From NCBI GenBank assembly GCA_009392915.1, contig CP045477.1:64001-128000 (forward strand): a DNA stretch of 64,000 nucleotides. The letters run 5' to 3'. Every line of letters starts with the position of its first letter. Position 1 is the first letter of the stretch. This DNA comes from Candidatus Forterrea multitransposorum CG_2015-17_Forterrea_25_41. Lineage in GTDB: Archaea; Iainarchaeota; Iainarchaeia; Iainarchaeales; CSSED10-239. The position numbers and the translations under genes were made by a program. The notes under the pieces were generated by a model. The model was not told the DNA's origin, searched no databases, and saw nothing but the letters and a program-made list of their open reading frames with translations. Shown here one piece after another: positions 9,304-57,959 of this stretch.

Positions 9304-9846
9304 ATGTTAACTTTTTTTAAAAAAATTAAAAGAGATTTGAAAACTAAAAAAAAAATAAAAGAATCTCTTTATTTTTTATTATTTTTTATAATTTCTTTTT
9401 CTCTTATTTATTTATTATTATCAAAAACCTTAATCTATAATTTTATAAACTATTTTTATGGTTCTCTTTCAAGTATTATTCTTAATATTTTTTATGGAAT
9501 TAATACTTCTTTTTATTATGATTTTATAGAACAAGTAACTTTTCTAATAATTCCAAGTATAGATTATCCTGTTGCAATTGTTTTCTTATGTACTGGTATT
9601 TTAGAATTTTCTTTAATTGTAAGTGCTATTGTTTCAACTATTGGTTTTTCTTTAAGAAAGAAAATAAAATGGGTATTAATTTCTTCTTTCCTTGTAATTA
9701 TTTTTAATCTTTTAAGAATAACTTTTACAATATTTATAATAGATTATTTTAATTTAGAAATAGCAGATTTTTTCCATGGTTTTTTATTTAGATTATTTTT
9801 AGTAATTATTGTTATTGGTACTTATTATTTTTTCTTAAAATCTTAA
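9304..9846 (+). CDS. small polytopic membrane protein, candidate short archaeosortase/exosortase-family protein
   Basis: 4-5 predicted TM helices. Cys96 in FLCTGILEF and Arg138 in FNLLRITF are spaced 42 residues apart, reminiscent of the essential Cys/Arg pair of archaeosortase ArtA (spacing 41). This is speculative. Confidence 0.35.
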   Translation: MLTFFKKIKRDLKTKKKIKESLYFLLFFIISFSLIYLLLSKTLIYNFINYFYGSLSSIILNIFYGINTSFYYDFIEQVTFLIIPSIDYPVAIVFLCTGILEFSLIVSAIVSTIGFSLRKKIKWVLISSFLVIIFNLLRITFTIFIIDYFNLEIADFFHGFLFRLFLVIIVIGTYYFFLKS

Positions 9847-9850
9847 ATTA

Positions 9851-10162
9851 TTATTTTTTAGGACCTTTCTTAATTTTTGGTTTTCTTTTTTTACAAGCTT
9901 CATTTTGAATAACAATTTCTTTTGTTAATTTATCATTCTTTCTTTGAAGACTTGCAATCTCACATAAAATAATTTCAGCAAATTCTTTATTTCCTTTATT
10001 TGATCTAATCATGTCTTTACAGTATTCTATGTTAATGTTATTAAGTTCAATTTTTTCAGAATTAGAAATTGTACCTACTCTATTTTTTTCTTGCAATTGA
10101 TTTTTTCTTTTTGCAATTGGTGATGATGAATGATTCCATTTTTGATTTAATTCAGTAGTCAT
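9851..10162 (-). CDS. hypothetical basic protein (103 aa)
   Basis: ORF whose start overlaps the upstream gene's stop by 4 nt (ATGA), which suggests an operon with 10159..10551. It has a Lys-rich C-terminus. Confidence 0.45.
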   Translation of the reverse strand: MTTELNQKWNHSSSPIAKRKNQLQEKNRVGTISNSEKIELNNINIEYCKDMIRSNKGNKEFAEIILCEIASLQRKNDKLTKEIVIQNEACKKRKPKIKKGPKK

Positions 10163-10551
10163 TTTTGCATCTCTTCTTTAATGATTTTTTTCACTTGTTC
10201 AATAGTTGTATACTCTAAAGGATTAATATTATCAATTACATATTTCATTTCTTTTAAATCTTCAGCTCTTGCATATCTTTTTGAAAACATCTCAAGATTT
10301 GATTCAATCCCTTTCATTCTGTTTTCAATATCTTTCATTTTTTTAAAAATTTCTTCAATTTTTTCATTAGATGCAAAAGAGCCTTGTGAATCTGAAGTAT
10401 TGGCTGAAGCAATCTTTTTATTTAAAACAAGGATGTTTCTTCCAAGTATCTTTTCATTATGCACAAGATATTTTATCTTTTGTCTTAAAACAAGAAGACT
10501 TGATTGTAAAGCTTTAATATCTTGATACACATTCTGTGATTGATCAACCAT
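10159..10551 (-). CDS. hypothetical coiled-coil protein (130 aa)
   Basis: Heptad-rich sequence predicted to be coiled-coil. No catalytic motif. Confidence 0.5.
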   Translation of the reverse strand: MVDQSQNVYQDIKALQSSLLVLRQKIKYLVHNEKILGRNILVLNKKIASANTSDSQGSFASNEKIEEIFKKMKDIENRMKGIESNLEMFSKRYARAEDLKEMKYVIDNINPLEYTTIEQVKKIIKEEMQK

Positions 10552-10745
10552 AGTTAGTTCTTCTCTTTTGTAAATATTTTATATATTTATATAGTAATAG
10601 ATAATATTTAAAGATGTTTGTTTTATTTTTAAAGATTTCTTTTTTTAAATTAACTTATAATAATTTAGTTCAGTTATTAAATTAAATACCTTTATAAACT
10701 ATTTGTCTCATAAATATATAAAAATAAATGAGGTGTTAAAAGGAT

Positions 10746-11102
10746 ATGAATAAAAAAATATTAAATATTTTTGGAGTACTTTCTGTTTTAGTTTTTTTAA
10801 TGTTTATTTCATTAAACTTAAGTGCAGAGAGATTTGATGTTACTGATATTTCTTACTCTTATGTAAGTTATAATTATCCATATTACCCAAATGGTCAATA
10901 TTATAATAGTTACTATAATTATTATGATTATTATATTCCAACAGGTTATGTAAATTCATATACAGGCTATATTAATTATCCTGCTTACTCAAATTATGTT
11001 CCAACTTACTATAACACTTCATATGTAACTTATCCTTCATACTATAACAACTCAATCAGTTATGGAAGTCCAGAGGCATATGTTTCTTTTAGTTGGCAAT
11101 AA
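10746..11102 (+). CDS. secreted Tyr/Asn-rich low-complexity protein
   Basis: N-terminal signal peptide (ILNIFGVLSVLVFLMFISLNLSA). The mature part is ~35% Tyr with YYNxYY repeats. The gene lies directly upstream of a giant surface protein gene. Confidence 0.6.
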   Translation: MNKKILNIFGVLSVLVFLMFISLNLSAERFDVTDISYSYVSYNYPYYPNGQYYNSYYNYYDYYIPTGYVNSYTGYINYPAYSNYVPTYYNTSYVTYPSYYNNSISYGSPEAYVSFSWQ

Positions 11103-11129
11103 ATAAAAAAGAGGATTTAAAGATTTATT

Positions 11130-14100
11130 ATGAACTATAAATATTTTTTTGTATTTTTATTAGTAGTTTTATTTTCATCAATGGTATTTTCATACACAAT
11201 TGGTTTTGATTATGCTGAAGTTAGAACTACAAGTTATCCTAACTATCTTAATTATCAATATGCTCATTACTATGATAATATTGATCTAAGATATGGTGTT
11301 TATGGAAGTGGAATTTCTTCTCCAGTAACAATAATTGTTTCTCCAAAAGTTTATGGAATAACAACTACTGGTCAAAGAGTCTTTGTTCATAATATACAAA
11401 CTCATTCTTTTTCAATGAATCCTTCTTCTTTTTATACTTATAGTTATAATCCAATGTTTTCTTTTGATCCTGCATATCAAAGTTATGAAGTTGTTTTAGA
11501 TCTTCAAAGTTCAGATGGATCTTTTAATAATTCTGTAAGTAGATATGTTTATTCTCAAGGAACAAATCCAAACCCTGGAGGAGATGATCCTACAGGTGAT
11601 GATCCTAATGTAGTTAGTTGTGATGATTTTTATGTTTCAGGAATGGAAGATATTTATTTAGATGAAGATTCAAGAGAATATTATAATCTTTATTTAGTAA
11701 ATTCTGTTGACTTGCCACTTACAATAACTTCAGTTACAGTTTCTCCAAATAATCCTACTAACTTAGAAATTGAAGATATTACTTATCCTTTTACAGTTTC
11801 TGCTCTTCAAACAAGAAGTGCACAAATTGAACTTTTTACAGATACAGTTTCTTCTGATTATTCAAATAGTTTTCAAATAGAAGTTAAAGGTAAATATGAT
11901 AATTCTTTAACTTGTGAAAAAACATATAATGTTAATTATAGAATACTAGATGCTGAACTTGAAAATAATGGTTCTTGTAGTGATATAAGAATTTTAGATG
12001 ATTATTTTACAATGAGTGATAATTCTTCTAAAACTTTTGAAATTGAAGTTTCAAATGCTTCTCAAGATTATTATTTTGAAGTTGATGATATTGATTTAGA
12101 TACTACAAATGATTCAATAATTGAAGCTAGTGTTAGAAACACAATTGATAAAATATATACAGATTCTTCTAAAATTTTAAAAATAAATGTTTCTTCAGAT
12201 GACACTTCTTTTTATAGAACTGAAAAAATTGATTTAGAACTAACAGGTTATTTAAAAAGAGAAAACAGAGAAGATAAAAAATGTAGAATAAGAGAAGATG
12301 TTTCAATAAGAGTTTCTCCAGATTCTTCAACTGGAAATACTTCAAATGAATGTGATGATATAAAAATATATACAAGAGATGTTTTCCAAGATTCTCAAAT
12401 AACAGAAAACTACTCTCTTCAAGAGGGTTTTTATATTTATAATGGAACTAATAAAAAATTTACTGTATCAGGTATTAACTATAAAGACAATACTATGTAT
12501 GCAGATATCTTTTCAAAATCTTTTGATTATACTCTTTATCCTAGATCCTCTAATGCTTTAAATTTTGATATAAGAACAAGTGAAGTTTCAGAAAATAAAC
12601 TTTCAAATGCAGAAATTTCTATTCAAGGATATTTTGAAGGTGGACTTTCTTGTAGTTATTCAGATATAACTTCAAACTTTAATTTAACTATAAGAGAAGA
12701 AAATGATTTTTGTTCAAATGTAGGTATTTATGATGACAGTTTTGTTGAAGGTGAAAATTATTTTACAGTTTATAATAACACTAATAAAGACTTTACTGTA
12801 AATGATATTATTTCTCAAAATTCAGTTAACTCAAATGTAGGTGTGATTGATTCTTCTTTTAAAGTTTTAAAAGATTCACAAAAAACTTTTAGAGTTGGTT
12901 CTTCAGGAAATGGTAGTTTTGAGCTTTTAGCTAAAGGTGTTTTTTCAGATGGCACTTCTTGTGACTATACTCAAACAAGCAGTGGTTATTTCAATAGTGA
13001 TTCTGGTTATGATTTTTCAGATACTTCTTGTGAATTTGAATTTAATTATCCAAATGTAAAATATATCTCTTTAAACGGAGACTCTCTAAATTTTGATTTT
13101 AGAAACTTAACTGGAAAATCTGGTGAGATTAGACTTTCTGCAGTTGGTGCTGTAATTGAAGATCCAATTATTAAGTTTTCTTCATATTCATCTTTTAATA
13201 AAGAAATAGATCTTTTAAATATTAAAAATCCAAAAATGGTTCTTTATACAATTGAAATTTACGGTTGTTCTAAAAAATCATATTTTACAAATCTTTATCC
13301 TTTAGGAAATTCTATTCAAGGAGATGTTTCATTTTTAACATATCCTAGTAATTTAATTTCAACTAAAGATAAATTTATAAGTTCTTTTTCACTTAAAAAC
13401 TCAAGTAGTTTTTCAGAAGATGTTGAAATTAAATTTTCAGGTTTTACAAGTGCATTTAATTTTGTATCTTCTCCTTATCCATTAAACCCAAATACTTTCT
13501 CATCTTCAGATAATGTTTCAACAGTTACAATAAATCCAAACTCTACAAAAAATATTTATTTTGGAGTTGATGTTTTAGAAAATGCAGAATATAAAAAATA
13601 TAATGGATATATTGAAGTTTATAGTAATAATAAATTATTATTTAAAGAGCCTTTATCAATAGATAGATCAATTACTACTAATAATTTATTAGTAAATACT
13701 ATGGTTGAAAAGACATCTGTTAAAAATACTGTTCTTTTAACATTTACTTTTGAAAACAAATTACCTGACCTTACAAGAGAACTTTATTTATCTTTTGAAG
13801 ACGAGAATAGTTTTGAAGTAGATGGTAATAGAAATATATCTGTTGCACCATTAAGTGTACTTGAAAGAAGCTTTACTGTTAAATATAATGAAGGTTCTTT
13901 ATTTAAGTATAATTTAATAGATACAGATAATTCTTCTCTTGCATATTCTGGAGAAGTAGATTTAAAAGAAATTGATAATTCTTCAAATCTTTTATCTGGA
14001 TTTTTTACTCTTTCAGATACAAAAGGATTTATATTTGCAATTGTTCTTATATTACTTATAGCTTTAATTATTTTCTTAATAGTTTATGGAGATAAATCTA

Positions 14101-14273
14101 GAGCTAAAAGAAAACAAGAAACTAAATCAGTTTTAGAAACACAAGAAAAAATAAAAGAAGAAATTAGAAAAGATAATTTTTCTAATATTACTAAGTCTGA
14201 GATTATAATAGGAAATAAGCCTATTATAAAGCCTGCAGAACCAAGACAGATTACTTTAGGTGAGCTTGATTAA
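11130..14273 (+). CDS. giant surface protein (1047 aa) with signal peptide, C-terminal TM anchor and cytoplasmic tail
   Basis: Signal peptide, then Ser/Thr/Asn-rich beta-type repeats with paired Cys. Near the C-terminus there is a TM segment FIFAIVLILLIALIIFLIVY followed by a basic/charged ~60-aa tail. Confidence 0.8.
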   Translation: MNYKYFFVFLLVVLFSSMVFSYTIGFDYAEVRTTSYPNYLNYQYAHYYDNIDLRYGVYGSGISSPVTIIVSPKVYGITTTGQRVFVHNIQTHSFSMNPSSFYTYSYNPMFSFDPAYQSYEVVLDLQSSDGSFNNSVSRYVYSQGTNPNPGGDDPTGDDPNVVSCDDFYVSGMEDIYLDEDSREYYNLYLVNSVDLPLTITSVTVSPNNPTNLEIEDITYPFTVSALQTRSAQIELFTDTVSSDYSNSFQIEVKGKYDNSLTCEKTYNVNYRILDAELENNGSCSDIRILDDYFTMSDNSSKTFEIEVSNASQDYYFEVDDIDLDTTNDSIIEASVRNTIDKIYTDSSKILKINVSSDDTSFYRTEKIDLELTGYLKRENREDKKCRIREDVSIRVSPDSSTGNTSNECDDIKIYTRDVFQDSQITENYSLQEGFYIYNGTNKKFTVSGINYKDNTMYADIFSKSFDYTLYPRSSNALNFDIRTSEVSENKLSNAEISIQGYFEGGLSCSYSDITSNFNLTIREENDFCSNVGIYDDSFVEGENYFTVYNNTNKDFTVNDIISQNSVNSNVGVIDSSFKVLKDSQKTFRVGSSGNGSFELLAKGVFSDGTSCDYTQTSSGYFNSDSGYDFSDTSCEFEFNYPNVKYISLNGDSLNFDFRNLTGKSGEIRLSAVGAVIEDPIIKFSSYSSFNKEIDLLNIKNPKMVLYTIEIYGCSKKSYFTNLYPLGNSIQGDVSFLTYPSNLISTKDKFISSFSLKNSSSFSEDVEIKFSGFTSAFNFVSSPYPLNPNTFSSSDNVSTVTINPNSTKNIYFGVDVLENAEYKKYNGYIEVYSNNKLLFKEPLSIDRSITTNNLLVNTMVEKTSVKNTVLLTFTFENKLPDLTRELYLSFEDENSFEVDGNRNISVAPLSVLERSFTVKYNEGSLFKYNLIDTDNSSLAYSGEVDLKEIDNSSNLLSGFFTLSDTKGFIFAIVLILLIALIIFLIVYGDKSRAKRKQETKSVLETQEKIKEEIRKDNFSNITKSEIIIGNKPIIKPAEPRQITLGELD

Positions 14274-14437: not shown

Positions 14438-14551
14438 AAATAATGATTGTTTTTTAATTTTTTTTAAAAAACATTTGTAAAGTTTAAAAATTGTTTTATA
14501 TAAAAAAAAGTGTAATTTATTTTGTGTAAAAAATATTAATGTGTAACATAT

Positions 14552-34396: not shown

Positions 34397-36484
34397 ATGC
34401 AGTTAAAGAAACTAACTTTAGTTTTATTATTTTTATTTATTTTTTCCATACCAGTTTTTTCTTCTTCTATAACTCTTTATGTTTCCTCTCCTTTTTCCTC
34501 TTCATCTTCAAATTTTAGTATTTCTCCTTCACTTTCTTTTGACAAGTTATCTTTAGTTTCAGAAGATAATTTATCTTTATTAAGAGAGCAAAATATTATT
34601 GTTAAAGAAGAAATTATTAAAGAAAAAGAATCTTCTTTAGAAGATAATTCTCTGTTAGAAGAAATAAATTCTCCAAATCATATTTATGAAACTTATTTTC
34701 AAGATTCTGTAATGATTGGAGATGTTTATTTTCCAGAAGGTATAATTGATTCTTCTCAAGTAAGAGAAAGAAGAAATATTAACTCTCAGTCTACAGTTGA
34801 TAATATTTGGGGTACCACTCCATTAACTGGAGAATATCATATTCCTGTTTTTTTAGTTGATTTTTCAGATGTTCCACATACTCTTTCTAAAGAAGTTTTT
34901 GAAGAACAATTTAATTCTCCTCTTTACTTGGACGGTAATGGTACAAGTGTAAGTCAGTATTACAAGAAACAATCCTATGGTGAACTTGATATTACTTTTG
35001 ATGTTTATGATTGGAGAGAAATGCCTGAAACTTATGAATATTATAGTACAAGATTAGGTGTTTTTGGAGCTCAAACAATAGATCTTTTTGGAACTGGTCC
35101 AAATGCAATTGATTTAACTCAATATGATTCTGATAATGATGGTAGGATAGATGGTTTTGTAATTGTTCACGCTGGTTTTTCTTTACAGAACGCTGGTACT
35201 GGTCATATTAAGACATCTACTTTATTAATGTATTCTGATGAAATTTTAACCATTCAAGGTTTGCATTATGGTAATATAGCTGTTACTTCTGAGAGATATC
35301 CTAGTTGTTCTTCTGGTTTTAATGAAAATTTAATTCCATATCCAGATGATTGTAGAATTGGTGTTTTAGATCAAACACATGAGTTTGGTCATATTTTAGG
35401 TCTTCCAGACTTTTATGGTATTGATCCAAATACTGGTGGTCAATCTCCTGGTCTTCAAAACCTAACTATGATGATGATGTATGATGACATTCCTCAAAAA
35501 CCAATTAATTTAGATGCTTGGGCAAGATATTTTTTAGGTTGGATACAACCAACTGTAATTGAAGAGGGCATGGAAGGTGTTTATCCAGTTTATTCAATTG
35601 ACACCAATCCAGATGGTGCTTTTATTTTACAAGATCTAACTGAGATGGATGAACGTGAATTTTTTATAATTGAAAATAGATTTATGCAAAACTCCCCTTA
35701 TAATCAAGATACTTTTCTTTTAAACACTTCTCAACTAAATTGGGATTATTTAAATGGTCATTTTGGTGGAATTGCAGTTTATCATGTTGATGAGCAATAC
35801 ATTGAAGATAATTATCCAACTAACAGTATCATGTGGGATCCTGATGGAGATTTTTATGATGATACTATAGGGCATCCTGGAATCGTTTTTGAAGAAAATA
35901 TAAAATTTTCAGAAAATAATTGGGATTATTCATTAGGAGATTTATATTCTAGTGAACGTAATGCTGGTTTTGGAGATAATACTTTTGGTAATTTTGATAG
36001 ATACCAAAGATTTTATCCAGAATATAATATGTTATGGGATTATCACAATAAAGCCTATAATGGTAATTTAACTGGTGTTACTGTTGGCACTTTAAGTGGT
36101 AGTGGATCTATAGTTTATGCTTATCTTCAAAGTTATCAAGAAACTTTTAATGCTTTAATCTCTTCTCCAAAAAATAACAGATGGTATAAGTATACTAATA
36201 ATTTAAATTTCATTTCAAGTTATTATAATAATTTAGGAGATGTAAGTTGTGTTTGGGAAGATTCCAGTAATAATATTCTATCTCAAGATTGTGAATTTTC
36301 TGCAACTCCAGAAGATTTAGGTTTACCAATCAGTGAATGTTCTGAGAAAATCACTCTAACTTTAGAAATAACAGATCAAGAAACTGGTGATACAATTATT
36401 GATACTGTTGATATAAAGATTTATGAAACCATAAGAGATATTTGTGAGACTGCTCATAACAACACCCAAGCAGCCACAAAATAA
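34397..36484 (+). CDS. secreted zinc metalloprotease (HExxH; M6/InhA-like motif HEFGHILGLPDFY)
   Basis: Signal peptide, then a Ser-rich linker, then a catalytic zincin motif HEFGH-x3-LPDFY. 695 aa. Confidence 0.55.
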   Translation: MQLKKLTLVLLFLFIFSIPVFSSSITLYVSSPFSSSSSNFSISPSLSFDKLSLVSEDNLSLLREQNIIVKEEIIKEKESSLEDNSLLEEINSPNHIYETYFQDSVMIGDVYFPEGIIDSSQVRERRNINSQSTVDNIWGTTPLTGEYHIPVFLVDFSDVPHTLSKEVFEEQFNSPLYLDGNGTSVSQYYKKQSYGELDITFDVYDWREMPETYEYYSTRLGVFGAQTIDLFGTGPNAIDLTQYDSDNDGRIDGFVIVHAGFSLQNAGTGHIKTSTLLMYSDEILTIQGLHYGNIAVTSERYPSCSSGFNENLIPYPDDCRIGVLDQTHEFGHILGLPDFYGIDPNTGGQSPGLQNLTMMMMYDDIPQKPINLDAWARYFLGWIQPTVIEEGMEGVYPVYSIDTNPDGAFILQDLTEMDEREFFIIENRFMQNSPYNQDTFLLNTSQLNWDYLNGHFGGIAVYHVDEQYIEDNYPTNSIMWDPDGDFYDDTIGHPGIVFEENIKFSENNWDYSLGDLYSSERNAGFGDNTFGNFDRYQRFYPEYNMLWDYHNKAYNGNLTGVTVGTLSGSGSIVYAYLQSYQETFNALISSPKNNRWYKYTNNLNFISSYYNNLGDVSCVWEDSSNNILSQDCEFSATPEDLGLPISECSEKITLTLEITDQETGDTIIDTVDIKIYETIRDICETAHNNTQAATK

Positions 36485-36561: not shown

Positions 36562-39531
36562 GTGAATATTTTGATAAAAATAAAAAAAGGACAAATTTCT
36601 TTAGAAGCAATTATTATAATTGGTGTTATTGTTTTAGCAAGTATTATATTTGCGACATTCTATATTTCTAATGTTAATAAAAAAATAGATACTGCAAGTA
36701 ATCTAGATCCTAATTTTTCTGGAATGATTGGATCTGATGAAATGGGGTCAACTGATCCTATAACTATTGGTGAAGAACCAGGTCCAGGCCCAGGTCCAGG
36801 AGGAAGTACTTGTGGTGATAATATTATTGAAGGTACAGAAGATTGTGATGGTACTAATTTAGGTGGTGCTACATGTGAGTCTGAAGGTCAAGGTACAGGA
36901 GATTTATCTTGTAATTCAAATTGTACTTTTGATTATTCTGGTTGTTCTAGTCCAACAGCAAGTTATACAATAACTTCAAGTCATGGATCAAATGGAACTA
37001 TTTTTCCTTTAGGAGCTGTAACAGTTTTAGAAGGGGCAAGTAAAAAATTTAATTTGTATCCAAATGCAGGTTATGATGTAGATACTGTTTCAATTGATGG
37101 TGCAGAAGTTTCTCTTAGTGAAAGAAGAAGTTATACTTTTAATAATGTTACTTCCGGTCATACTATTCATGTAACTTTTAAACCTTATGCTTCAAATGAA
37201 CATATTATTTTTGCAAGTAGTGGTTCTCATGGAACCATAGATCCTGCAAGAAATAATACAGTTATAGAAGGAGATGATATTACTTTTACATTTAATCCAG
37301 ATACAGGATATCGTGTAGGTAATGTCTATATTGATGATACTACTGTTGGTTCAGAACAAATAGAGATTATTAATGATTTTTCTTCAAAAGATTCTGAAAA
37401 TAATAATTTATATTTTTCAGAAGAAGATGTTTTATATTTTGCATCTGATACAGGGACAGGTACTTCTTCAAATTTAGTTTATACTTTTGAAGATGTAGAT
37501 GATAGTCATACTATTCATGTAACTTTTATATCAAACACAACTCCTACATATACTTTAGAATATATTGCTGGAGCAAATGGTAGTATTTCTGGTCCAAATC
37601 CTCAAACTGTAAGTCAAGGAGAAGATGGTACAGAAGTATGTGCTGTTGCAGATGAAGGTTATGAATTTTTTAAATGGGATGATGATTATTATTCTGAATG
37701 TAGAACTGAAACAAATGTAACAAGTAATCAAACATATACTGTTATCTTTAATGAAAATGCAGGTCAAACAATGGCTATGAATTTAGAAGGTGTTGAATCA
37801 ACTCCAATAAATCAAAACTTTGATGTTGTTGTTAATACTTCTGAAACTCCAGGAACTGTAAGTTATGGTTTAGTTGCAGGATTATTAATTTATAATGATG
37901 TTGCAGGAGATTATTTGCCAACAAACAATTGTTCTTATAACGGAACTTTTGCTTCAAATCATACACTTGAAACAAATCAATCTCCAGGTATTGAAAATTA
38001 TACTTTTACATGTAATACTTCTGGAAACTATAAATTTACATTTACAGCAACAGATACAACTAACTCAACAAATGATGTTTCAAGAGATAAATTAATTACT
38101 GTTGTAAATAACCAAACAGCAGCACCAACATTTTCAATTGATGGAGGTACTTATTTTAATGATCAAACATTAACTTTAAGTTCAACAACTCCTAGTGCAA
38201 CTATAAAATACACAACTAATGGTACTATCCCAACTTGTACTACAGGAACAACTTATTCTCCTGCAAGTCCAATTCAAATTAATCAAATTTTAACAGTAAA
38301 AGCAATTGCTTGTAAATCTGGATATATTGATAGTCAAGTTGTTACAGAAATTTATAATTTAAAAGTTGGATATCCAGAACCAAGTGTTAATCCTGGTGTA
38401 TATTCTCAAGCACAGACAATTACTCTTTCAACAGAAACAATTGGTGCAACTTTGTATTATTCAACAGATGGTTCTGATGCTTTTGATGGAAGTGTTTACG
38501 TTCCAGGAGAAGAAATTATAATTTCAAAACCATATACTGAATTAAGAGTGGCAGGAGAAAAATCAAATTATAATGATAGTTCAGAATTTGATGAATATTA
38601 TTATATAAATGGTTATGAATCTCCAACTCCAAGTATGGTTTTTACAAATTATTATGGAGATGCATATAATCTTGTAGGTGCTGCAAATTTAACTCACTCA
38701 GATGTTTTCTTTGAAGATGAAGAAAATAATTTAGTAAGATTTGTTAATCCTAAATTAAATGGAGATTATTTTAACGGAAGTAATGCTTCAGGAGCTACAT
38801 TAATAGATTGTGAGGCATTTTGTTCTGAAAAGTATCTTGGAGGAACTTGTGATTCTTTTGATAAAACTAATTATTCTGGAAATGCAAATAATTTGATATA
38901 TTATAGAAATATGATTCCTGGTTCTGGTGGTGCAAATGATGTTTTCCCTTACACAATTGGGGGTGAGTTATCTAATTCTCCTCAATGGGCTTATGCTTCT
39001 GGAGCTATTGGTGGACCAGATAGAGTAGGATACTTCACTTGTGATTTTTCACACACCTCCAGTCCAGAAGATGCAGACTTTGGATTTATTGATTTATATA
39101 CTGAAGATTTATTATTAAATTATGGTGATCCATTTGATGGTACAGAATTCTATTATGATTCTTCAAGAGTAACTTTTGATAATGTTACAAAGTCTGGTTC
39201 AGAATATACTTATTCAGGTTTAAATGTTGTAGGTAATTTTGACACACCAGGCGCAACTGCTCCAACAGGAACAGTTTATATACTTTCAGATGATTTTTCA
39301 CAAGCTTGTGATGCTGTATGTGATGCTTTATATCAAGAAAGTTCTTGTGAAAATTATGATACAACAGATGTATATACTGCTAAAGGAGTTTCATATAATT
39401 ATTATCCTCCTGAATATGCAACAATATTTAATCCTAATTTAAGTACAGGTTATTATTGGACATCTGGAAGTCAACTTTTCTATGATGTTTGGTCAGAAGC
39501 TGTTCTTTCAGAAGTTACTTGTTCAAAGTAA
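36562..39531 (+). CDS. 989-aa adhesin-like protein with type IV pilin-like (class III) N-terminal signal peptide
   Basis: N-terminus KKGQISLEAIIIIGVIVLASIIF matches the class III/prepilin signal (cleavage after G, hydrophobic helix). This is followed by a GPGPGPGG linker, a Cys-rich module, three GYxF..W Listeria-Bacteroides-type repeat domains and a chitobiase/hexosaminidase C-terminal-like beta domain. Confidence 0.7.
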   Translation: MNILIKIKKGQISLEAIIIIGVIVLASIIFATFYISNVNKKIDTASNLDPNFSGMIGSDEMGSTDPITIGEEPGPGPGPGGSTCGDNIIEGTEDCDGTNLGGATCESEGQGTGDLSCNSNCTFDYSGCSSPTASYTITSSHGSNGTIFPLGAVTVLEGASKKFNLYPNAGYDVDTVSIDGAEVSLSERRSYTFNNVTSGHTIHVTFKPYASNEHIIFASSGSHGTIDPARNNTVIEGDDITFTFNPDTGYRVGNVYIDDTTVGSEQIEIINDFSSKDSENNNLYFSEEDVLYFASDTGTGTSSNLVYTFEDVDDSHTIHVTFISNTTPTYTLEYIAGANGSISGPNPQTVSQGEDGTEVCAVADEGYEFFKWDDDYYSECRTETNVTSNQTYTVIFNENAGQTMAMNLEGVESTPINQNFDVVVNTSETPGTVSYGLVAGLLIYNDVAGDYLPTNNCSYNGTFASNHTLETNQSPGIENYTFTCNTSGNYKFTFTATDTTNSTNDVSRDKLITVVNNQTAAPTFSIDGGTYFNDQTLTLSSTTPSATIKYTTNGTIPTCTTGTTYSPASPIQINQILTVKAIACKSGYIDSQVVTEIYNLKVGYPEPSVNPGVYSQAQTITLSTETIGATLYYSTDGSDAFDGSVYVPGEEIIISKPYTELRVAGEKSNYNDSSEFDEYYYINGYESPTPSMVFTNYYGDAYNLVGAANLTHSDVFFEDEENNLVRFVNPKLNGDYFNGSNASGATLIDCEAFCSEKYLGGTCDSFDKTNYSGNANNLIYYRNMIPGSGGANDVFPYTIGGELSNSPQWAYASGAIGGPDRVGYFTCDFSHTSSPEDADFGFIDLYTEDLLLNYGDPFDGTEFYYDSSRVTFDNVTKSGSEYTYSGLNVVGNFDTPGATAPTGTVYILSDDFSQACDAVCDALYQESSCENYDTTDVYTAKGVSYNYYPPEYATIFNPNLSTGYYWTSGSQLFYDVWSEAVLSEVTCSK

Positions 39532-47897: not shown

Positions 47898-49103
47898 TTG
47901 ATTAATATGTTTTCAAAAAAAATTATTTTAGTATCTGTTTTATTTTTACTTACATCTTTATTTTCGGGGTTGATTTTCTCTGAAAGATATATAGATAGTT
48001 CTTATGTTCAAGTTATTGCTCAAGAAGTAAGTCCTGAACCAGTAGAGCCTGGTCAAGATTTTTTACTAAAAGTTAGAGTTCATAATTTTGGAACAGTGGA
48101 TGCTAAAAATGTAAAAATTAATCTTGATTTAAATTATCCTTTTTATTTAAAAAATACAAGTGAGTCTTATATTGACTTTAATTCGATTTGTTCTAATTGT
48201 TCTGCAGAAAATACATATTATTTTACAGTTTCAAGTTCTGCAGTTTCAGGGATATATCCAATACATTTTAATATATCTGAAATAAATAATGAAACTGTTT
48301 CTTTTAAACCTCAAATAATAGATATTTCCATATTAGGTAAACCTGATTTAGTTTTAGAAACCATAAAAGTAGATCAAAATATTTCTGCCGGAGATATATT
48401 TAATATTAAATTTTTATTAAGGAATATAGGTACTGGGAATTCTAGAAATATAAAAATAATTCCTAATTCTGATGATTTTATGCTTATTGGGACAAATACT
48501 AAATGGTTTGAAGAATTAGGTCCCAATAAAGAAATTATTTTTGATTTAAATTTTATTTCAAACAAAGATTTAATTTCAAATAGTTATATTTTTCCTATAG
48601 ATCTTGAATTTTTAGGAGAAAAACAAAATTTTTATACCTCTTCATATAATATTGGAATTAATCTTTTAGGAAAAGCAGATTTATCTTTACAAAATTTAAA
48701 AATTACTCCTTTAAACCCTTCTTTAAAAGATTTAATTAATTTTGAAGGAATTATTGAAAATATAGGAAATGGAAAAGCAAATAATGTTTCTTTAGAATTA
48801 TTTGTTTCAAATGATGAGAATTATAAATATTATATTGGTCAATTAAATAAAGATGATGATGCTCCTTTTTATTTTAATGAAATTAAATTTAATTCTGTTG
48901 GAAATAATAAAGTAAATTTGATTGTAAATTATGATGATGATTACGGTAATTATAAAATAGAAATTCCTTTAAATCAAAATATAAATAAATCTAATAATTT
49001 ATCTTTATTTTTTATAGTTTTATTTTTATTTTTGGTTTTATTTTTTAGTTTGTATTTATTAAAAAATAATAAACACAATAAAAATAAAAAAATAAAGAAT
49101 TGA
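47898..49103 (+). CDS. CARDB-repeat (COG1361-like) cell-surface protein with C-terminal TM anchor
   Basis: Signal peptide and three CARDB-like repeats (e.g. VSPEPVEPGQDFLLKVRVHNFGTVDAKNVKINL). The C-terminus has a TM helix plus basic tail KNNKHNKNKKIKN. Confidence 0.7.
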   Translation: MINMFSKKIILVSVLFLLTSLFSGLIFSERYIDSSYVQVIAQEVSPEPVEPGQDFLLKVRVHNFGTVDAKNVKINLDLNYPFYLKNTSESYIDFNSICSNCSAENTYYFTVSSSAVSGIYPIHFNISEINNETVSFKPQIIDISILGKPDLVLETIKVDQNISAGDIFNIKFLLRNIGTGNSRNIKIIPNSDDFMLIGTNTKWFEELGPNKEIIFDLNFISNKDLISNSYIFPIDLEFLGEKQNFYTSSYNIGINLLGKADLSLQNLKITPLNPSLKDLINFEGIIENIGNGKANNVSLELFVSNDENYKYYIGQLNKDDDAPFYFNEIKFNSVGNNKVNLIVNYDDDYGNYKIEIPLNQNINKSNNLSLFFIVLFLFLVLFFSLYLLKNNKHNKNKKIKN

Positions 49104-54380: not shown

Positions 54381-57300
54381 ATGAAAAATAAGATACTAAT
54401 AATTTTTTTATTTACAATTTTACTTTCAACTTTTATTTTTTCAGATCCTGTTGTAAAGATAAATGATAATTTAACAACATATACAAACAGTGATTCTGAA
54501 AACTTCTATGTTGAAGTAAGTAATACTGGAGATAATTGTGAAGTTGAATCTGATTTTATAAGTATTAATTTAAGTTCAGATGCAGCAAGTTCTTTTCCAT
54601 ATTTAATATACTGTAATCTTGAAAGAAATTATAGTGGTTATTTTTCAGTAGATTTTTCAACAAACACACCAACACCTCCAATACCAAATGTTTTAGTTAA
54701 TAATGAAGATACTGTTATTGCAGACTATAATGGGTTTACTGCTAATTTAGTAGTTGACACAATAAATACTATAACAGGAACTTTTGATTTAAATTCTGTT
54801 GATTCAGTTGTAAATAATTACTATAAAGGAGATGTTGAAGTTACTTCTTTAAGTTCTTTTTCAGATGCACATTCTGGTTTAAAAGAATATTACATTTATA
54901 TTGTTGAAGTTGATTCAGTAAATGACTATAGAGATGATTATTATAAGAGATTAATTGTAGATGTTAATGAAACTTCTATTGATTTAGGTACATCTACAAC
55001 TGTTTCTGATGGAAATTATTTTGTTTTAGTTGAAGCTTTAGATTATGCTGAAAATCTTGCAATACCTTCTCAAGTAATTTTAAATAAAAAAAATATGTAT
55101 GTTGATAATACAGCACCTCAAGTAACTTCTTTTAGTTTAGGAAGTTTTTCAGAAGGTACAACTTATTATGTTCCTTCAACAACTACTACTTTGACTTTAT
55201 TAATTGAAGATGATGGTGTAGGGGTAAGGAATGAACCTCTATATACACAAATAGATAGAGATAGTGTAAAGTTAGCAGATTATAATTCTATATTAGGCGG
55301 TTTCTTTTTTGATTTTACAACAGTTGATTATGATATTGATGGTTCATATGAGCTTGCAGCAACAGATCTTTTAGGTAATTTAAATGAAAAAACATTTTCA
55401 ATAATGATAGATGAAACTTCTCCAACAACTCCAACAATTTCAACAGTTACAAGAGCTGTAGATAATAATGTTACAATTTCAAATTGGGGTACTTCAACTG
55501 ATTCTGGAAGTGGTTTAAAAGAATACAAAGTCTATAGGTCAACTTCTTCTTTTACAGAAGTTTCAAATCAAGATTTAATTTGTACAGTTTCTGCAGCTGC
55601 TTCAAAAACTTGTCTTGATTCAACTTCAAAATCAGATGATACAAGATATTATTATGGTGTTACTGCAGTTGATAATGCAGGAAATAATAGTCCAGTTGTA
55701 ACTGCAAGCATAAAAACAGGTCCTGAACTTGATATTTATATTGATTTAGAAGATTCTGATTTTGTAAATACTGTTACTCCAGAGATAACTTTAGAGTATG
55801 GTTCTGATGTTAATGCTGTTAGATTTAGTTGTAATGCTTCAACTTTTACATCATGGGTTGAAGTTTCGGGAACTTCTGAGGTTTATGAAAGTTTTAATGT
55901 AACTTCTGGAAATGGATGTAATACAGATCAAGGAGATAAAATAATTTATGTTGAAGCAAGAAGTGAAGACGATCCTTATCTTATTACTAGAGAATCTTTT
56001 GAGTTTGAACTTGATTCAAAAGCACCAACAATACCTAGTAACATAGAAGTTTTAGAACAAGCAAATGGTTCTTTAAATATTTCTTGGACAAGCTCAACAG
56101 ATGTAAATGGTAGTGGTCTTGAAGAATACAGGATTTATTATTCAGAATCTGAGTCAGTTTCTAAATCCTCACAATATATGACTTCTTCAGATGAAGAGTA
56201 TATTTTTAATCCTAATGAAGATAAAACATTTTATTTTAAAATATCTGCAATTGATGAAGCATTAAATGAATCTGATCTTTCATCTATTGCTTCTGGAACT
56301 GCAAAAAGATTTGGACCTTCTTTTACTTTTAATGCAAGCCCAAAAAATTTAATTGATGATGTTTATTATTTAAAAAAAGGAAATGTTTTATTTACTATTA
56401 CAAGTAGTGAAGAATTAAAACAAACACCTATTATTAGACTTAAAATTGGTAATTCACCTTATAAATCAATTTCTGCAATTTATAGTAATTTAATTACAAC
56501 TTTTAATTATTCTTTAGAAGAAAGTGGAGATTCAATTTTAGAAATTACAGGTACAAATAATAATAATGAAACAACAACTGATACTTTTAATTTTATAGTA
56601 GATGCAGAAGTTCCAACTTTTACTGCTGACTATAATTTCTTTGAAGATACTAAATTATATGAATTTAAAATAAGTGATTTTTCAGATGATGTTTTCAGAG
56701 TTCAATATTTATTTAATAATGTTGAAGAAGTTTGTTTTATTGAAGATTCAAATAACAATTATCTTTGTTCACTTGATTCTACTCTTTATAAAGATGGTAA
56801 TCATAAAATGTATGTTTTAGTTTATGATAGAGCATTAAATTATGAAACTGAAATTATTTCTTTTGAAATAGATAATGTTGATGAAGCTTTAATTTTAAAA
56901 GAAAATTTAGTTGCTGAAATTAATACAAATATTTTTACAATTGAAGATAGAATTTCTTTCCTTCAAGCAATCTCTTTAGAAGTTTCTCAAGATGTTTTAG
57001 ATAAATTTTCTGAAGCTAAAGAAAAAGTTGTTCTTGCAAAATCTCTAGAAGATTCAAATAATTTTTCAGAAGCTGTAAATACTTATACTTCTGTAAATAA
57101 TTCTTTACTTGAGATATTAGAAGTTTTACCTACAGAAAATGTTTTAAAAACAAAAACTATTGAAATTGATCTTTTAGATAATTCTTTTGATCTTAATACA
57201 GTTATTTTGGATCAAAATATATTAACTGATAATTTGTCTTTTTATGATGTTAATAATCAAGACCTAAATTTTATATCAGTTTCAAGAGAATTTAGTGTTT

Positions 57301-57959
57301 TTGAAGTATCTGGTCAAAACTTTTATTCTAGTAATTTAATTTTTGTAAATGACTCTAATGTAGATAAAGTAATTTCTTTTATTGAAGTAATACCTAAAGA
57401 ATTTGAAAAATCTTCAGATAATATTTATTTTGATAGAAATATTGTTGTAATTGATAAAGATCCAATAATTCTTTATAATTTAGTAATTCCTAAAAATTCT
57501 TCTCTTACAACAAAATATATTAGTCAAACAGCAATTACAAGTTTTGATATTTTAACTAAATTTGATGCAATTGTTTACAAGTCTCCTCTTCTTTTAACTG
57601 GATCTGTAAATTTAGAAGATTTAAATTTTGAAAAACCTTTAATTGATAGTAAATCTTTATTTATGATAGCAGTTGTTCTTTTAATAATAATTATCTTACT
57701 TTTAGTAATCTGGATGGTGGCTTCTGGTCGTAAGAAAAAAGAAGATGTCTTTAAAGAAATGGAACCTAAGGATGCTATGAATAAATATCTTGGAAATAAA
57801 CTAAATAGTAATTCTCAAGAAAAATCTTCAACTGATTCTTCTTCATCTAAAACTTTAGAAGAAAAAGAAGAAGAGCATAAAAGTGATCTTGAAAAGAAAA
57901 AGAAGTATGATAGTAATTATGAGTTTATTTTAGATGCTGTTAAAAGAAGTAATAAATAA
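54381..57959 (+). CDS. giant surface protein (1192 aa) with Fn3-like domains, C-terminal TM and long charged cytoplasmic tail
   Basis: Signal peptide and repeated Fn3-type signatures (SGLKEYKVYRS, GSGLEEYRIYYS). TM helix FMIAVVLLIIIILLLVIWMVA followed by an ~85-aa K/E/S-rich tail. Confidence 0.8.
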   Translation: MKNKILIIFLFTILLSTFIFSDPVVKINDNLTTYTNSDSENFYVEVSNTGDNCEVESDFISINLSSDAASSFPYLIYCNLERNYSGYFSVDFSTNTPTPPIPNVLVNNEDTVIADYNGFTANLVVDTINTITGTFDLNSVDSVVNNYYKGDVEVTSLSSFSDAHSGLKEYYIYIVEVDSVNDYRDDYYKRLIVDVNETSIDLGTSTTVSDGNYFVLVEALDYAENLAIPSQVILNKKNMYVDNTAPQVTSFSLGSFSEGTTYYVPSTTTTLTLLIEDDGVGVRNEPLYTQIDRDSVKLADYNSILGGFFFDFTTVDYDIDGSYELAATDLLGNLNEKTFSIMIDETSPTTPTISTVTRAVDNNVTISNWGTSTDSGSGLKEYKVYRSTSSFTEVSNQDLICTVSAAASKTCLDSTSKSDDTRYYYGVTAVDNAGNNSPVVTASIKTGPELDIYIDLEDSDFVNTVTPEITLEYGSDVNAVRFSCNASTFTSWVEVSGTSEVYESFNVTSGNGCNTDQGDKIIYVEARSEDDPYLITRESFEFELDSKAPTIPSNIEVLEQANGSLNISWTSSTDVNGSGLEEYRIYYSESESVSKSSQYMTSSDEEYIFNPNEDKTFYFKISAIDEALNESDLSSIASGTAKRFGPSFTFNASPKNLIDDVYYLKKGNVLFTITSSEELKQTPIIRLKIGNSPYKSISAIYSNLITTFNYSLEESGDSILEITGTNNNNETTTDTFNFIVDAEVPTFTADYNFFEDTKLYEFKISDFSDDVFRVQYLFNNVEEVCFIEDSNNNYLCSLDSTLYKDGNHKMYVLVYDRALNYETEIISFEIDNVDEALILKENLVAEINTNIFTIEDRISFLQAISLEVSQDVLDKFSEAKEKVVLAKSLEDSNNFSEAVNTYTSVNNSLLEILEVLPTENVLKTKTIEIDLLDNSFDLNTVILDQNILTDNLSFYDVNNQDLNFISVSREFSVFEVSGQNFYSSNLIFVNDSNVDKVISFIEVIPKEFEKSSDNIYFDRNIVVIDKDPIILYNLVIPKNSSLTTKYISQTAITSFDILTKFDAIVYKSPLLLTGSVNLEDLNFEKPLIDSKSLFMIAVVLLIIIILLLVIWMVASGRKKKEDVFKEMEPKDAMNKYLGNKLNSNSQEKSSTDSSSSKTLEEKEEEHKSDLEKKKKYDSNYEFILDAVKRSNK

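Follow-up and report, generated by a model that had tools for sequence, protein, structure and literature searches.

The small spore-coat proteins CotC and CotU of Bacillus subtilis (~66-86 aa) contain ~30% Tyr, are rich in Lys, lack a signal peptide and are made in the mother cell. In FUS-type [G/S]Y[G/S] low-complexity domains and in the repeats of the Sup35 N-domain, Tyr accounts for ~13-16% of residues. Eukaryotes form protective extracellular layers from secreted low-complexity proteins rich in Tyr, among them trematode eggshell proteins, plant extensins and the precursors of coccidian oocyst walls; the last group includes GAM56, GAM82 and the Tyr-rich proteins of Toxoplasma (PMC7366593, PMC3261165). 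Among archaea, the Sulfolobales encode their S-layer in a two-gene operon, slaA-slaB, whose small subunit SlaB is the membrane anchor, and ArtA of Haloferax volcanii can process a tripartite signal located away from the extreme C-terminus (PMC6098224). A literature search found no report joining tyrosine-rich proteins with archaeal S-layers, and nothing relevant appeared among the titles and abstracts on Iainarchaeum S-layers. We know of no Tyr-rich partner in the Haloferax ArtA system.

Here we compare these systems with a locus of the tiny groundwater archaeon Candidatus Forterrea multitransposorum (Iainarchaeota, DPANN), carried on a 64,000-nt stretch of contig CP045477.1 that we call the window; positions are those of the window and all features described lie on its forward (+) strand. 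A small ORF at 10746-11102, running from an ATG start to a TAA stop, encodes 118 aa, of which 28 are Tyr. All 28 fall within the 91 residues (31%) that follow the predicted cleavage site between LSA and E, against 4.0 expected (binomial P = 1.4e-16) from the composition of 47 window ORFs (15,568 residues, 4.4% Tyr). The same mature part contains neither Lys (9.6 expected, P = 4e-5) nor Leu (8.1 expected, P = 2e-4), and Tyr, Ser, Asn, Pro, Gly and Gln together make up ~70% of it, with six charged residues. A comparison of composition, suggested in the preliminary description of this DNA, places the small ORF at the top of the 80 ATG-initiated window ORFs of at least 80 aa, with a Tyr fraction of 0.237 vs 0.086 for the runner-up (mean 0.040, sd 0.029); the portrayal there of a secreted protein that is about one-third Tyr agrees with the 28 of 91 Tyr in the mature part and with a Sec-type signal anatomy. 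The protein resembles CotC and CotU as a small prokaryotic surface-layer protein of ~30% Tyr that would act, by prediction in the archaeon, as accessory structural material outside the membrane. It differs from them in being free of Lys, in its predicted Sec export and in its three conserved motifs; there is no sequence similarity, and any cross-linking of the archaeal protein would be conjectural. With FUS-type domains, Sup35 and the archaeal prion-like domains outlined in a preprint (bioRxiv 10.1101/2020.07.20.212902) it shares a charge-poor chain rich in Tyr, Asn, Ser, Gly, Gln and Pro, regularly spaced Tyr "stickers" and predicted disorder, but its Tyr is 2-3 times denser (31%) than in FUS and Sup35, and the chain is predicted to be exported, is ~90 residues long and is framed by non-repetitive motifs.

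These residues are not arranged in the YYNxYY repeats first proposed for them. Tandem Repeats Finder detects a single 36-bp TAT-rich stretch (10899-10935, 69-74% matches) and no head-to-tail unit beyond it, and a regular tandem-repeat protein is accordingly rejected. The region is compositionally biased, with a preference for Y-x-x-Y spacing in place of a repeat array: this spacing occurs 145 times across the Tyr-rich proteins vs 70 in shuffles (z = +10), a count inflated by the kinship of the compared sequences. Carbohydrate-binding modules (CBMs) use planar aromatic strips, and an attached life on hosts is probable for many DPANN archaea. Both facts would suit a reading in which Tyr of period 3 in a polyproline-II-like chain stack on sugar rings or mineral and stick the cell to a host wall, exopolysaccharide or particle, the big protein encoded downstream merely presenting the small one. 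Y-x-x-Y at twice its shuffle expectation and 5-11% Pro are in keeping with such an aromatic ladder, as is the presence in the window of a gene for a pilin-type protein with chitobiase-type domains; the proposal is, however, inferential throughout, with no fold, no CBM homology and no anchor of the protein's own behind it, and with a spacing count raised by sequence relatedness, and we give it a slim chance.

The first 27 residues (10746-10826) show the legible n-, h- and c-regions of a signal peptide, namely MNKK, a hydrophobic core of 19 residues and NLSA, with cleavage predicted before E28. Ala27, at position -1, is invariant or near-invariant among the homologues, and AF2 places a helix at residues 3-23 (pLDDT 85-89). 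From this anatomy we infer Sec-type export with cleavage after Ala27; given the 19-residue h-region, an uncleaved signal anchor may be an alternative. The head motif FDVTDISYSYVSYNYPYYPN (residues 30-49, 10833-10892; alignments A1 and A3) forms the best-conserved part of the 17-sequence alignment A3, and F30, D31, V32, T33, D34, I35, S36, Y37, S38, V40, P45 and Y47 are invariant in A1. It is followed by a Tyr-rich low-complexity body (residues 50-101, 10893-11048) whose length shifts by indels among homologues, Tyr still accounting for 26-33% in 17 of 17 members. Within the body lies the middle motif GYVNSYTGYI (residues 67-76, 10944-10973), with the family form GY[VI]NPYTGY and invariant Y72 and G74. 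The chain closes with the conserved tail NSISYGSPEAYVSFSWQ (residues 102-118, together with the TAA stop at 11049-11102), of the family form N.ISY.SP...V.FSWQ, in which N102, S105, Y106, F115, S116 and W117 are invariant in A1, W117 being invariant in alignments A3 and A4 as well. Three N-x-S/T sequons occur in the window protein, one of them within the signal peptide; inspection of A3 by eye revealed no family-conserved sequon in the small proteins, the N-x-[IV]-S of the tail not being one.

In an AF2 model built on 12 aligned sequences, the mature part has no structure or only a low-confidence one (residues 30-101 pLDDT <50), with a weak, low-confidence beta-hairpin at tail residues 103-116, which suggests that the mature chain of ~90 residues has no stable fold of its own. 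Such a chain would be compatible with a self-assembling functional amyloid or prion-like hydrogel, likened to curli, archaeal sheath amyloids and low-complexity domains of the FUS/Sup35 type, in which the exported chain would polymerize alone into cross-beta fibres or a gel round the cell and its linkage to the downstream gene would reflect mere co-expression of envelope parts. The charge-poor, Tyr/Ser/Asn/Pro/Gly/Gln-dominated composition would suit such a polymer, as would a body that keeps its composition and not its exact sequence, and archaeal prion-like domains able to form amyloid are outlined in the same preprint (bioRxiv 10.1101/2020.07.20.212902). Against it, the three position-specific motifs, with their fixed head and tail, suggest specific docking and not generic aggregation, 5-11% Pro throughout the body disfavors long beta-strands, and the most divergent variant, from locus L015, is strongly acidic (34 Asp+Glu in 154 residues), which opposes amyloid packing. 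We regard amyloid assembly as unlikely.

Is the small ORF a gene at all? TAT-rich DNA is common at 25% GC, and the absence of a database family would also fit a spurious ORF or the remnant of a larger gene. However, at the 25% GC of the window, all six frames together should yield ~0.09 open stretches of 118 codons by chance, and the remaining five frames across the region contain 5-23 stops, so the ORF is not an artefact of AT-richness. Compared with its 92%-identical relative L008, it has a dN/dS of 0.14 (dN 0.042, dS 0.30), and it is under purifying selection. Its ~17 homologues are 112-145 aa long with 26-33% Tyr, each with its own signal peptide and stop; the promoter and Shine-Dalgarno (SD) elements are conserved, no relative shows a fusion to a neighboring gene or the small ORF as a fragment of a larger one, and a counterpart with 42% Tyr is present in a genome of 39% GC (L015). 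A spurious origin is thus extremely improbable, and the small gene is a real, conserved gene of an Iainarchaeota archaeon, encoding a Tyr-rich protein with the sequence features of export. Two scenarios that the preliminary description had considered damaging, a lack of homologues or of conserved linkage and the degradation of a larger gene, are contradicted by the homologues, the retained linkage and the selection on the one hand and by the lack of any fragment or fusion on the other.

The family to which the protein belongs is small. Five matches were found among 5.8 billion clustered proteins, an exhaustive profile search of 1.84 billion proteins recovered only seven true members, all on Iainarchaeota-like DPANN contigs, and extra copies of the gene came from GTDB and metagenome loci. 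The exact window protein is present in JGI sample 3300008002 and in other samples. At E<=0.1, no Pfam-A or NCBIfam family matches the window protein, and the 17 aligned members gave just three single-member chance matches (E>=0.02); the A4 profile, run against 177,635 PDB sequences, found an antibody heavy chain as its sole match (E = 1.2). The earlier remark that no described archaeal family was recognizable withstands each of these searches, and the protein belongs to a small family so far undescribed. Family members carry 0-4 Lys+Arg, 0-3 Leu and 5-11% Pro, and their pI is mostly ~4-5, with two exceptions at 8.0 and 8.7. The composition itself is under selection: indels notwithstanding, no member leaves the range of 26-33% Tyr, Lys, Arg and Leu stay low and Y-x-x-Y is favored. 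We propose to define the family by a signal peptide, an FD[VI]TD[IV]SYSY head, a GY.NPYTG core and an [FV].W tail in a protein of 112-145 aa with 26-33% Tyr, a combination found in the window protein and, with minor variation, in 16 aligned homologues. The window gene also has the characteristic position, directly upstream of a ~1000-aa beta-sandwich gene.

Upstream of the small gene, the block GTTCAGTTATTAAATTAAA (10668-10686) is near-invariant in 8 of the 10 loci aligned in A5 and diverges in L003 and L012; identity among the ribosomal L3 proteins of the A5 loci is just 58-99%. The block may have a regulatory role or belong to the surroundings of the BRE. The sequence TTTATAAACTATTTG (10691-10705) has the form of an archaeal BRE/TATA promoter core, with the TATA box at 10691-10698, ~50 nt before the ATG, and we take it to act as a promoter. 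The window contains two copies of the motif TTTAWAAANNATTTG, vs 0.37 expected by chance, and the second copy (14463-14477) precedes the L3 ribosomal operon. Of 25 fetched partner-carrying loci, 21 have the motif ahead of the small gene, an exact match being absent from L015 and L029-L032, and in L022, L023 and L025, which have no partner, it stands directly before the big gene. A Shine-Dalgarno-like GAGGTG, read from the sequence, is found 10 nt ahead of the ATG (10730-10735), and most homologous loci in A5 have GAGG/GGTG-like purine motifs at the matching position. Between the small and the big gene, a spacer of 27 nt (11103-11129) contains a GAGGA purine tract, likewise read from the sequence, and is too short to accommodate a separate promoter for the big gene; the corresponding spacers in homologous loci are 20-62 nt long and not consistently in frame. 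These arrangements point to co-transcription of the two genes, at a high level, as a two-gene operon. Stop-codon read-through or fusion to the big gene was considered and rejected: the two genes share a frame in the window, yet two stops lie between them, and the spacers of relatives are not multiples of three. An Rfam scan of the window returned two tRNAs only, and nothing near the small-gene locus.

The second gene (11130-14273) encodes a surface protein of 1047 aa (alignment A2, AF2), composed of a signal peptide, a Tyr-rich N-domain (residues 22-160), ~7 beta-sandwich domains (161-945) with five conserved Cys pairs, the motif SGFFTL (956-961), a TM helix (966-986), a basic cluster (987-995) and a tail of ~50 residues ending in RQITLGELD. 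AF2 models it with a mean pLDDT of 69.5, mostly 70-90 for domains 161-945 and 31-53 for the N-domain alone. Searched against the PDB with Foldseek, the model retrieves generic Ig/MG/ASH beta-sandwich strings (hydin-like ASH, alpha-2-macroglobulin MG; TM ~0.1) and no S-layer-specific match. It has 21 N-x-S/T sequons, or 2.0 per 100 aa vs 0.56 per 100 aa in cytoplasmic proteins. The envelope nature of the big protein is supported by its modeled beta-sandwiches, paired Cys, sequon enrichment and TM anchor with its motif and basic ending, along with a nearby archaeosortase-family gene, and it is probably the main surface glycoprotein. The window encodes further large surface proteins, however, so that its standing as the chief S-layer component is not proven. 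A common origin of the small protein and the Tyr-rich N-domain was considered and rejected, BLASTP giving no match below E = 1 and hhalign pairing only the signal peptides (probability 27%). As in slaA-slaB, the genes for a small and a large envelope protein stand side by side and probably share a transcript; unlike in slaA-slaB, the anchor is on the large protein, the small one would be anchorless after signal cleavage, and there is no homology.

The C-terminal signature [ST]GF[FL][ST]L-TM-basic recurs across homologues of the big protein and is truly terminal in distant relatives. It looks like an archaeosortase sorting signal outside the PGF-CTERM class; membership of that class was rejected on the SGFFTL motif and the ~50 residues beyond the basic cluster, and the NCBIfam PGF-CTERM model does not match the protein. 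About 1.3 kb upstream, the gene at 9304-9846 encodes a polytopic membrane protein of 180 aa that belongs to the exosortase/archaeosortase family (TIGR04178 exo_archaeo, 44.9 bits against a cutoff of 23, E = 1e-11; weak match to Pfam Exosortase_EpsH), with Cys96, Arg138 and His158 in FLCTG, LLRITF and FFHGF. It scores below cutoff for the ArtD, heimdallarchaeosortase and XrtX-associated models. The locus thus resembles that of the H. volcanii S-layer glycoprotein and ArtA in pairing a motif, TM helix and basic ending with an archaeosortase-family gene; it differs in having [ST]GF[FL][ST]L instead of PGF and an enzyme that fits the family signature only, not ArtA-E. The gene is kept in the neighborhood of loci both with and without the Tyr-rich gene, and we consider its product a candidate processing enzyme for the C-terminal signal of the big protein.

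Wherever a partner-carrying locus offers enough DNA, 20-62 bp separate the small gene from a downstream gene for a ~1000-aa protein, and the shared gene order is seen in L001-L021, L026, L031 and L029. The tight linkage to a giant gene reported earlier is therefore conserved, with the correction that the gap is 27 nt and not 28, and the search it had proposed for Tyr-rich partners beside giant surface proteins in relatives finds them even in the deep outlier L015. There, identity falls to 42% for L3 and 22% for the big protein, and gene order is still kept in a 39%-GC genome; the partner, its sequence almost wholly altered and yet 42% Tyr, retains GYRNPYT, GY.NPYT being contained in 5 of 400,000 composition-preserving shuffles, and its acidic YYYD-type sequence recalls the Tyr/Asp runs of CotC and CotU. 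Because synteny is expected anyway among close relatives, the case for a functional link between the genes depends chiefly on L015 and the shared promoter. No partner is found within 4 kb in six loci of intermediate distance, L022, L023 and L025 among them, whose big protein is homologous, so the partner is dispensable, and since related lineages retain the big protein and the archaeosortase without the small gene, the small protein is accessory and not core. Docking on the N-domain had been proposed from the low pLDDT of that domain alone; it loses force with L029, whose big protein starts directly at its first beta-sandwich domain and so lacks the most evident docking site, although the partner is present. 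Dispensability in lineages with a different big protein, an upstream position in the same operon and docking-like conserved motifs would also suit a co-translated extracytoplasmic chaperone or spacer, transiently needed for the folding, glycosylation or archaeosortase processing of the big protein and no permanent structural part. Such an assembly or export helper is quite improbable in our judgment: its composition bears no resemblance to that of known chaperones, and the roughly stoichiometric co-expression expected of the operon suits a structural partner equally.

The reading we favor, with moderate confidence, is that the small ORF opens an envelope operon of two genes and that its product works outside the cell as an accessory to the big protein, in a structural or adhesive role. 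The small protein would leave the cell by Sec, its signal peptide being cut after Ala27, and would, once beyond the membrane, associate with the big surface protein or with the glycans that coat it. Docking would fall to the three conserved motifs, and the evenly spaced Tyr (Y-x-x-Y) would form a multivalent sticky surface, acting through aromatic stacking and hydrogen bonding, by which the protein would cement or modulate the envelope lattice or adhesion to partners. Modeled on the coats of Bacillus (CotC/CotU), coccidian oocyst walls, trematode eggshells and plant extensins, an oxidatively cross-linked matrix, in which dityrosine or DOPA-quinone links would harden the envelope, might instead be envisaged. 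The extreme Tyr content and the predicted extracellular location match such systems (oocyst walls: PMC7366593, PMC3261165). The oocyst, eggshell and extensin proteins are, however, eukaryotic and much larger, show no homology and depend on peroxidase or tyrosinase for their links, and there is no such enzyme near the archaeal gene: neither the conserved neighborhood of any locus nor the scanned set of large window ORFs revealed a peroxidase, laccase or tyrosinase. Such DPANN archaea generally pass for anaerobes living in waters poor in oxygen, where oxidants are scarce. The mature protein also lacks Lys, a usual partner in quinone tanning. The probability of cross-linking is slight, and the "cross-linkable matrix or adhesive material" of the preliminary description amounts to an analogy from composition.

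Beyond the favored reading of an accessory partner, we tentatively entertain a bolder one, which we consider unlikely: the envelope of these DPANN archaea would have two parts, a beta-sandwich glycoprotein processed by an archaeosortase and a disordered "tyrosine glue" (30-42% Tyr) docked by three motifs, its aromatic ladder binding the lattice or a partner. This would be a new kind of component without an S-layer counterpart, ancient (kept from 99% to 42% L3 identity) and repeatedly lost. Tyr-rich proteins of this sort are nearly invisible to standard homology searches: composition filters left all 360 candidates collected with the L015 partner, including the query, without a score. Similar partners may be under-counted elsewhere. 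The envelopes of DPANN archaea are almost unknown in molecular terms, yet they mediate attachment to and exchange with other organisms, and the locus offers, for one such lineage, a testable set of candidates: a probable main surface glycoprotein, a probable archaeosortase and an unprecedented Tyr-rich partner predicted to be exported, with a promoter like that of the ribosomal operon. If the small protein does act as a structural glue, it would be the first described archaeal Tyr-based matrix protein and would provide a natural design of ~90 residues for adhesive or self-assembling materials.

The ORF at 10746-11102 on the forward strand encodes a 118-aa protein with a hydrophobic N-terminal segment ending in NLSA, followed by 91 residues that comprise 28 tyrosines (31%), 13 serines, 10 asparagines, 7 prolines and neither lysine nor leucine. 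In this window of 25% G+C, the amino-acid usage of 47 ORFs predicts 4.0 tyrosines for these 91 residues versus the 28 observed (P = 1.4e-16), 9.6 lysines versus 0 (P = 4e-5) and 8.1 leucines versus 0 (P = 2e-4), making it a strong outlier for all three residues, and its tyrosine fraction is the highest among the 80 ATG-initiated window ORFs of at least 80 aa. The extreme tyrosine content claimed in the preliminary description is thereby borne out; the YYNxYY repeats that it reported form no regular array, as TRF detects just one 36-bp TAT-rich patch, and are better described as compositional bias. Across the family the tyrosines are spread evenly, with Y-x-x-Y occurring 145 times versus 70 in shuffles and long tyrosine-free gaps depleted, counts that are inflated because the sequences are related.

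About 0.09 open frames of 118 codons are expected by chance in the window, and each of the five alternative frames across the region contains 5-23 stops. A search of 5.8 billion clustered proteins returned five homologues, and nine matches came from 1.84 billion representatives searched exhaustively with an HMMER profile. Seven of the nine truly belong to the family, and two are Ig/cadherin-type repeat proteins sharing a single strand-like motif with it. Additional copies were recovered from GTDB and metagenome loci, the GTDB genomes bearing the names Candidatus Iainarchaeum or Diapherotrites (DPANN archaea). These numbers set a minimum for the family, as composition filters probably hide such proteins; the 42% Tyr sequence from locus L015 (1059-1613), used as a query against the 5.8-billion-protein collection, gave zero matches, apparently not even itself. 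All members, 112-145 aa in length, share a signal peptide with Ala at position -1, a head (FDVTDISYSYVSYNYPYYPN), a tyrosine-rich body of variable length that includes GY[VI]NPYTGY and a tail (N.ISY.SP...V.FSW[Q]); tyrosine is kept at 26-33% in every member despite numerous indels, and the pI is mostly ~4-5. Comparison of the window gene with the 92%-identical copy of a close relative (L008) gives a dN/dS of 0.14 (dN 0.042, dS 0.30). The preliminary description recognised the protein from no described archaeal family, and indeed it has no match in Pfam, NCBIfam or PDB sequences. A spurious ORF is effectively refuted and retains a vanishingly small probability; this is a real gene of a new, narrowly distributed small protein family.

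The 100 nt upstream of the gene are unusually conserved across species whose ribosomal protein L3 is 58-99% identical, with a block of GTTCAGTTATTAAATTAAA followed by CCTTTATAAACTATTTG, a TATA box (10691-10698, +) ~50 nt ahead of the ATG and a GAGGTG-type Shine-Dalgarno site (10730-10735, +). The promoter-like motif TTTAWAAANNATTTG occurs twice in the 64-kb window versus 0.37 copies expected, at 10691-10705 before the tyrosine-rich gene and at 14463-14477 before the L3 ribosomal-protein operon, so that the promoter resembles that of a ribosomal operon. It precedes the small gene in 21 of the 25 fetched partner-carrying loci, has no exact match in L015 and L029-L032, and lies directly 5' of the big surface-protein gene in three loci without the small gene (L022, L023, L025). 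The tight linkage of the two genes stands, with a spacer of 27 nt, rather than the 28 bp first given, and of 20-62 nt across loci. A separate archaeal promoter would not fit into such spacers; for this reason, and given where the motif is placed, a single promoter driving the small gene, where present, and then the big gene is the simplest reading. TAC makes up 21% of Tyr codons in the tyrosine-rich gene, compared with 8% in the whole window and 16% in ribosomal-protein genes (P = 0.03), a weak hint from codon usage that its expression may be high.

The product of the big gene (11130-14273, +) is 1047 aa long; it could be assigned to no family, and the 5.8-billion-protein collection has only ~10 homologues of it. 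The alignment and an AF2 model (mean pLDDT 69.5) place a signal peptide at the N-terminus, followed by a Tyr-rich N-domain of low AF2 confidence (residues 22-160), about seven beta-sandwich domains with five conserved Cys pairs (residues 161-945), SGFFTL (residues 956-961), a TM helix (residues 966-986), a basic cluster and a C-terminal tail of ~50 residues that ends in a conserved KQITLxELD. Foldseek matches were limited to generic chains of Ig-like, MG or ASH domains, and N-x-S/T sequons are 3.6-fold above cytoplasmic proteins; the protein is probably glycosylated. Its C-terminal region (13995-14273, residues 956-1047) has the order [ST]GF[FL][ST]L, TM helix and basic cluster, and in distant homologues (L015, L022-L028) the protein stops directly after the TM helix and RRK/RKR. 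Such an ending is the classical tripartite sorting signal for sortase-like enzymes (PMC6098224). The cytoplasmic tail is an addition of the window's clade, and is compatible with processing since Haloferax ArtA can process a tripartite signal away from the extreme C-terminus (PMC6098224). The protein lies outside PGF-CTERM yet plausibly works like a member of it.

About 1.3 kb upstream of the big gene lies an exosortase/archaeosortase-family gene (9304-9846, +). Its product, a membrane protein of 180 aa, scores 44.9 bits against the TIGR04178 signature (cutoff 23), has Cys96, Arg138 and His158, and fits none of the named subfamilies ArtA-E or heimdallarchaeosortase. Unusually small and conserved beside S8e in these DPANN genomes, it is kept in the neighbourhood in loci with and without the tyrosine-rich gene. 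Two coiled-coil-like genes of no assigned family (10159-10551, -, 130 aa; 9851-10162, -, 103 aa) are divergent from the tyrosine-rich gene, and the 130-aa one recurs at almost every related locus, even where the tyrosine-rich gene is absent. Between the archaeosortase-like and coiled-coil genes lie lineage-specific insertions in L016 (1681-4661; a 748-aa protein and a family-2 glycosyltransferase) and L003 (7842-9437; a 531-aa protein). L003 also carries an RHH/ParE-type toxin-antitoxin pair 5' of a helicase gene (2073-2668), and in L013 (691-2468) and L014 (592-2369) a bAvd-like gene and a reverse transcriptase adjoin the CGI-121 gene in what looks like a diversity-generating retroelement, absent from the window. 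A 401-aa CARDB-domain protein (47898-49103, +), with a TM helix and Lys-rich stretch at its extreme C-terminus, is a candidate second archaeosortase substrate. That the big protein is the main S-layer protein is only plausible, because the window encodes three further large surface-type proteins (36562-39531, 34397-36484 and 54381-57959, all +): one (989 aa) combines a class III (pilin-type) signal peptide with chitobiase/Fn3-associated domains, another is an M6 (InhA-like) peptidase and the last (1192 aa) has a Big_13 domain.

With L3 identity to the window as yardstick, every locus between 99% and 58% carries the tyrosine-rich gene (L008, L017, L009, L006, L010, L002, L016, L013, L003, L012), extending the linkage to related genomes, as do the short contigs L029 and L031. 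No copy lies within 4 kb at loci L022-L025, L027 and L028 (L3 ~54%, big protein 30-35% identical). The most distant locus, L015 (L3 42%, big protein 22% identical, GC 39%), again has a partner, with a signal peptide and a strongly acidic 154-residue mature part of 42% Tyr with YYYD runs; the head and tail motifs are lost and GYRNPYT is kept, a motif that holds the protein's only Asn and recurs in 5 of 400,000 composition-preserving shuffles. It is more likely that the pairing predates the window's clade and was lost in some lineages than that the partner was reinvented in L015. Under either history, selection acts on a tyrosine-rich exported protein ahead of this surface-protein gene, which is the chief reason to suppose that the two are coupled in function as well as in gene order.

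The tyrosine-rich protein is therefore conserved, under selection, exported in appearance and genetically coupled to a membrane-anchored beta-sandwich surface protein, and an envelope role predicted from gene context is well supported. In the model we propose, the two genes would be co-transcribed and the small protein exported by Sec and cleaved after Ala27. In its AF2 model (12-sequence alignment) the signal-peptide helix is the sole confident element, with pLDDT <50 for residues 30-101 and a weak C-terminal hairpin; the mature chain may be disordered alone, or its fold may be hidden by the shallow alignment. Without an autonomous fold, it would attach to the big protein or to the glycans on it, docking via the three conserved motifs, while the spaced tyrosines would make multivalent aromatic and hydrogen-bond contacts. 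We give this model, in which the protein serves the envelope as accessory cement or adhesive coating, roughly an even chance. The same tyrosines might instead form an aromatic ladder that binds host or substrate polysaccharide or mineral, or the protein might be a transient assembly helper; we regard the former as quite improbable and the latter as no less doubtful. That the partner completes the poorly predicted N-domain of the big protein is weakened by L029 (1111-1281), where, as in L030, the big homologue starts at the first beta-sandwich domain (VSCSDITLSGKTEIYVDED); in L029 the N-domain is missing and the partner (P0022) is still upstream. Oxidative dityrosine/DOPA cross-linking, one form of the cross-linkable matrix raised in the preliminary description, has little likelihood: no oxidase is seen near the gene, the protein lacks Lys, and archaea of this kind are generally regarded as anaerobes.

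In composition and location the protein is similar to the tyrosine-rich matrix proteins CotC/CotU of Bacillus, coccidian oocyst-wall proteins (PMC7366593, PMC3261165), trematode eggshell proteins and extensins. A further resemblance is to prion-like low-complexity domains, and self-assembly into an amyloid or hydrogel is an unlikely reading. The protein appears to belong to none of these groups, as it has no homology to them, no Lys, conserved motifs of its own and a Sec signal. The gene arrangement is loosely like slaA-slaB, except that here the anchor is on the large subunit, and the surrounding genes are similar to the ArtA/S-layer glycoprotein system, from which the motif differs. No tyrosine-rich extracellular structural protein is known to have been described before in Archaea or in such a gene context. 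Confined to one uncultured lineage, the family will surprise archaeal-envelope specialists and provides a concrete handle on DPANN surfaces.
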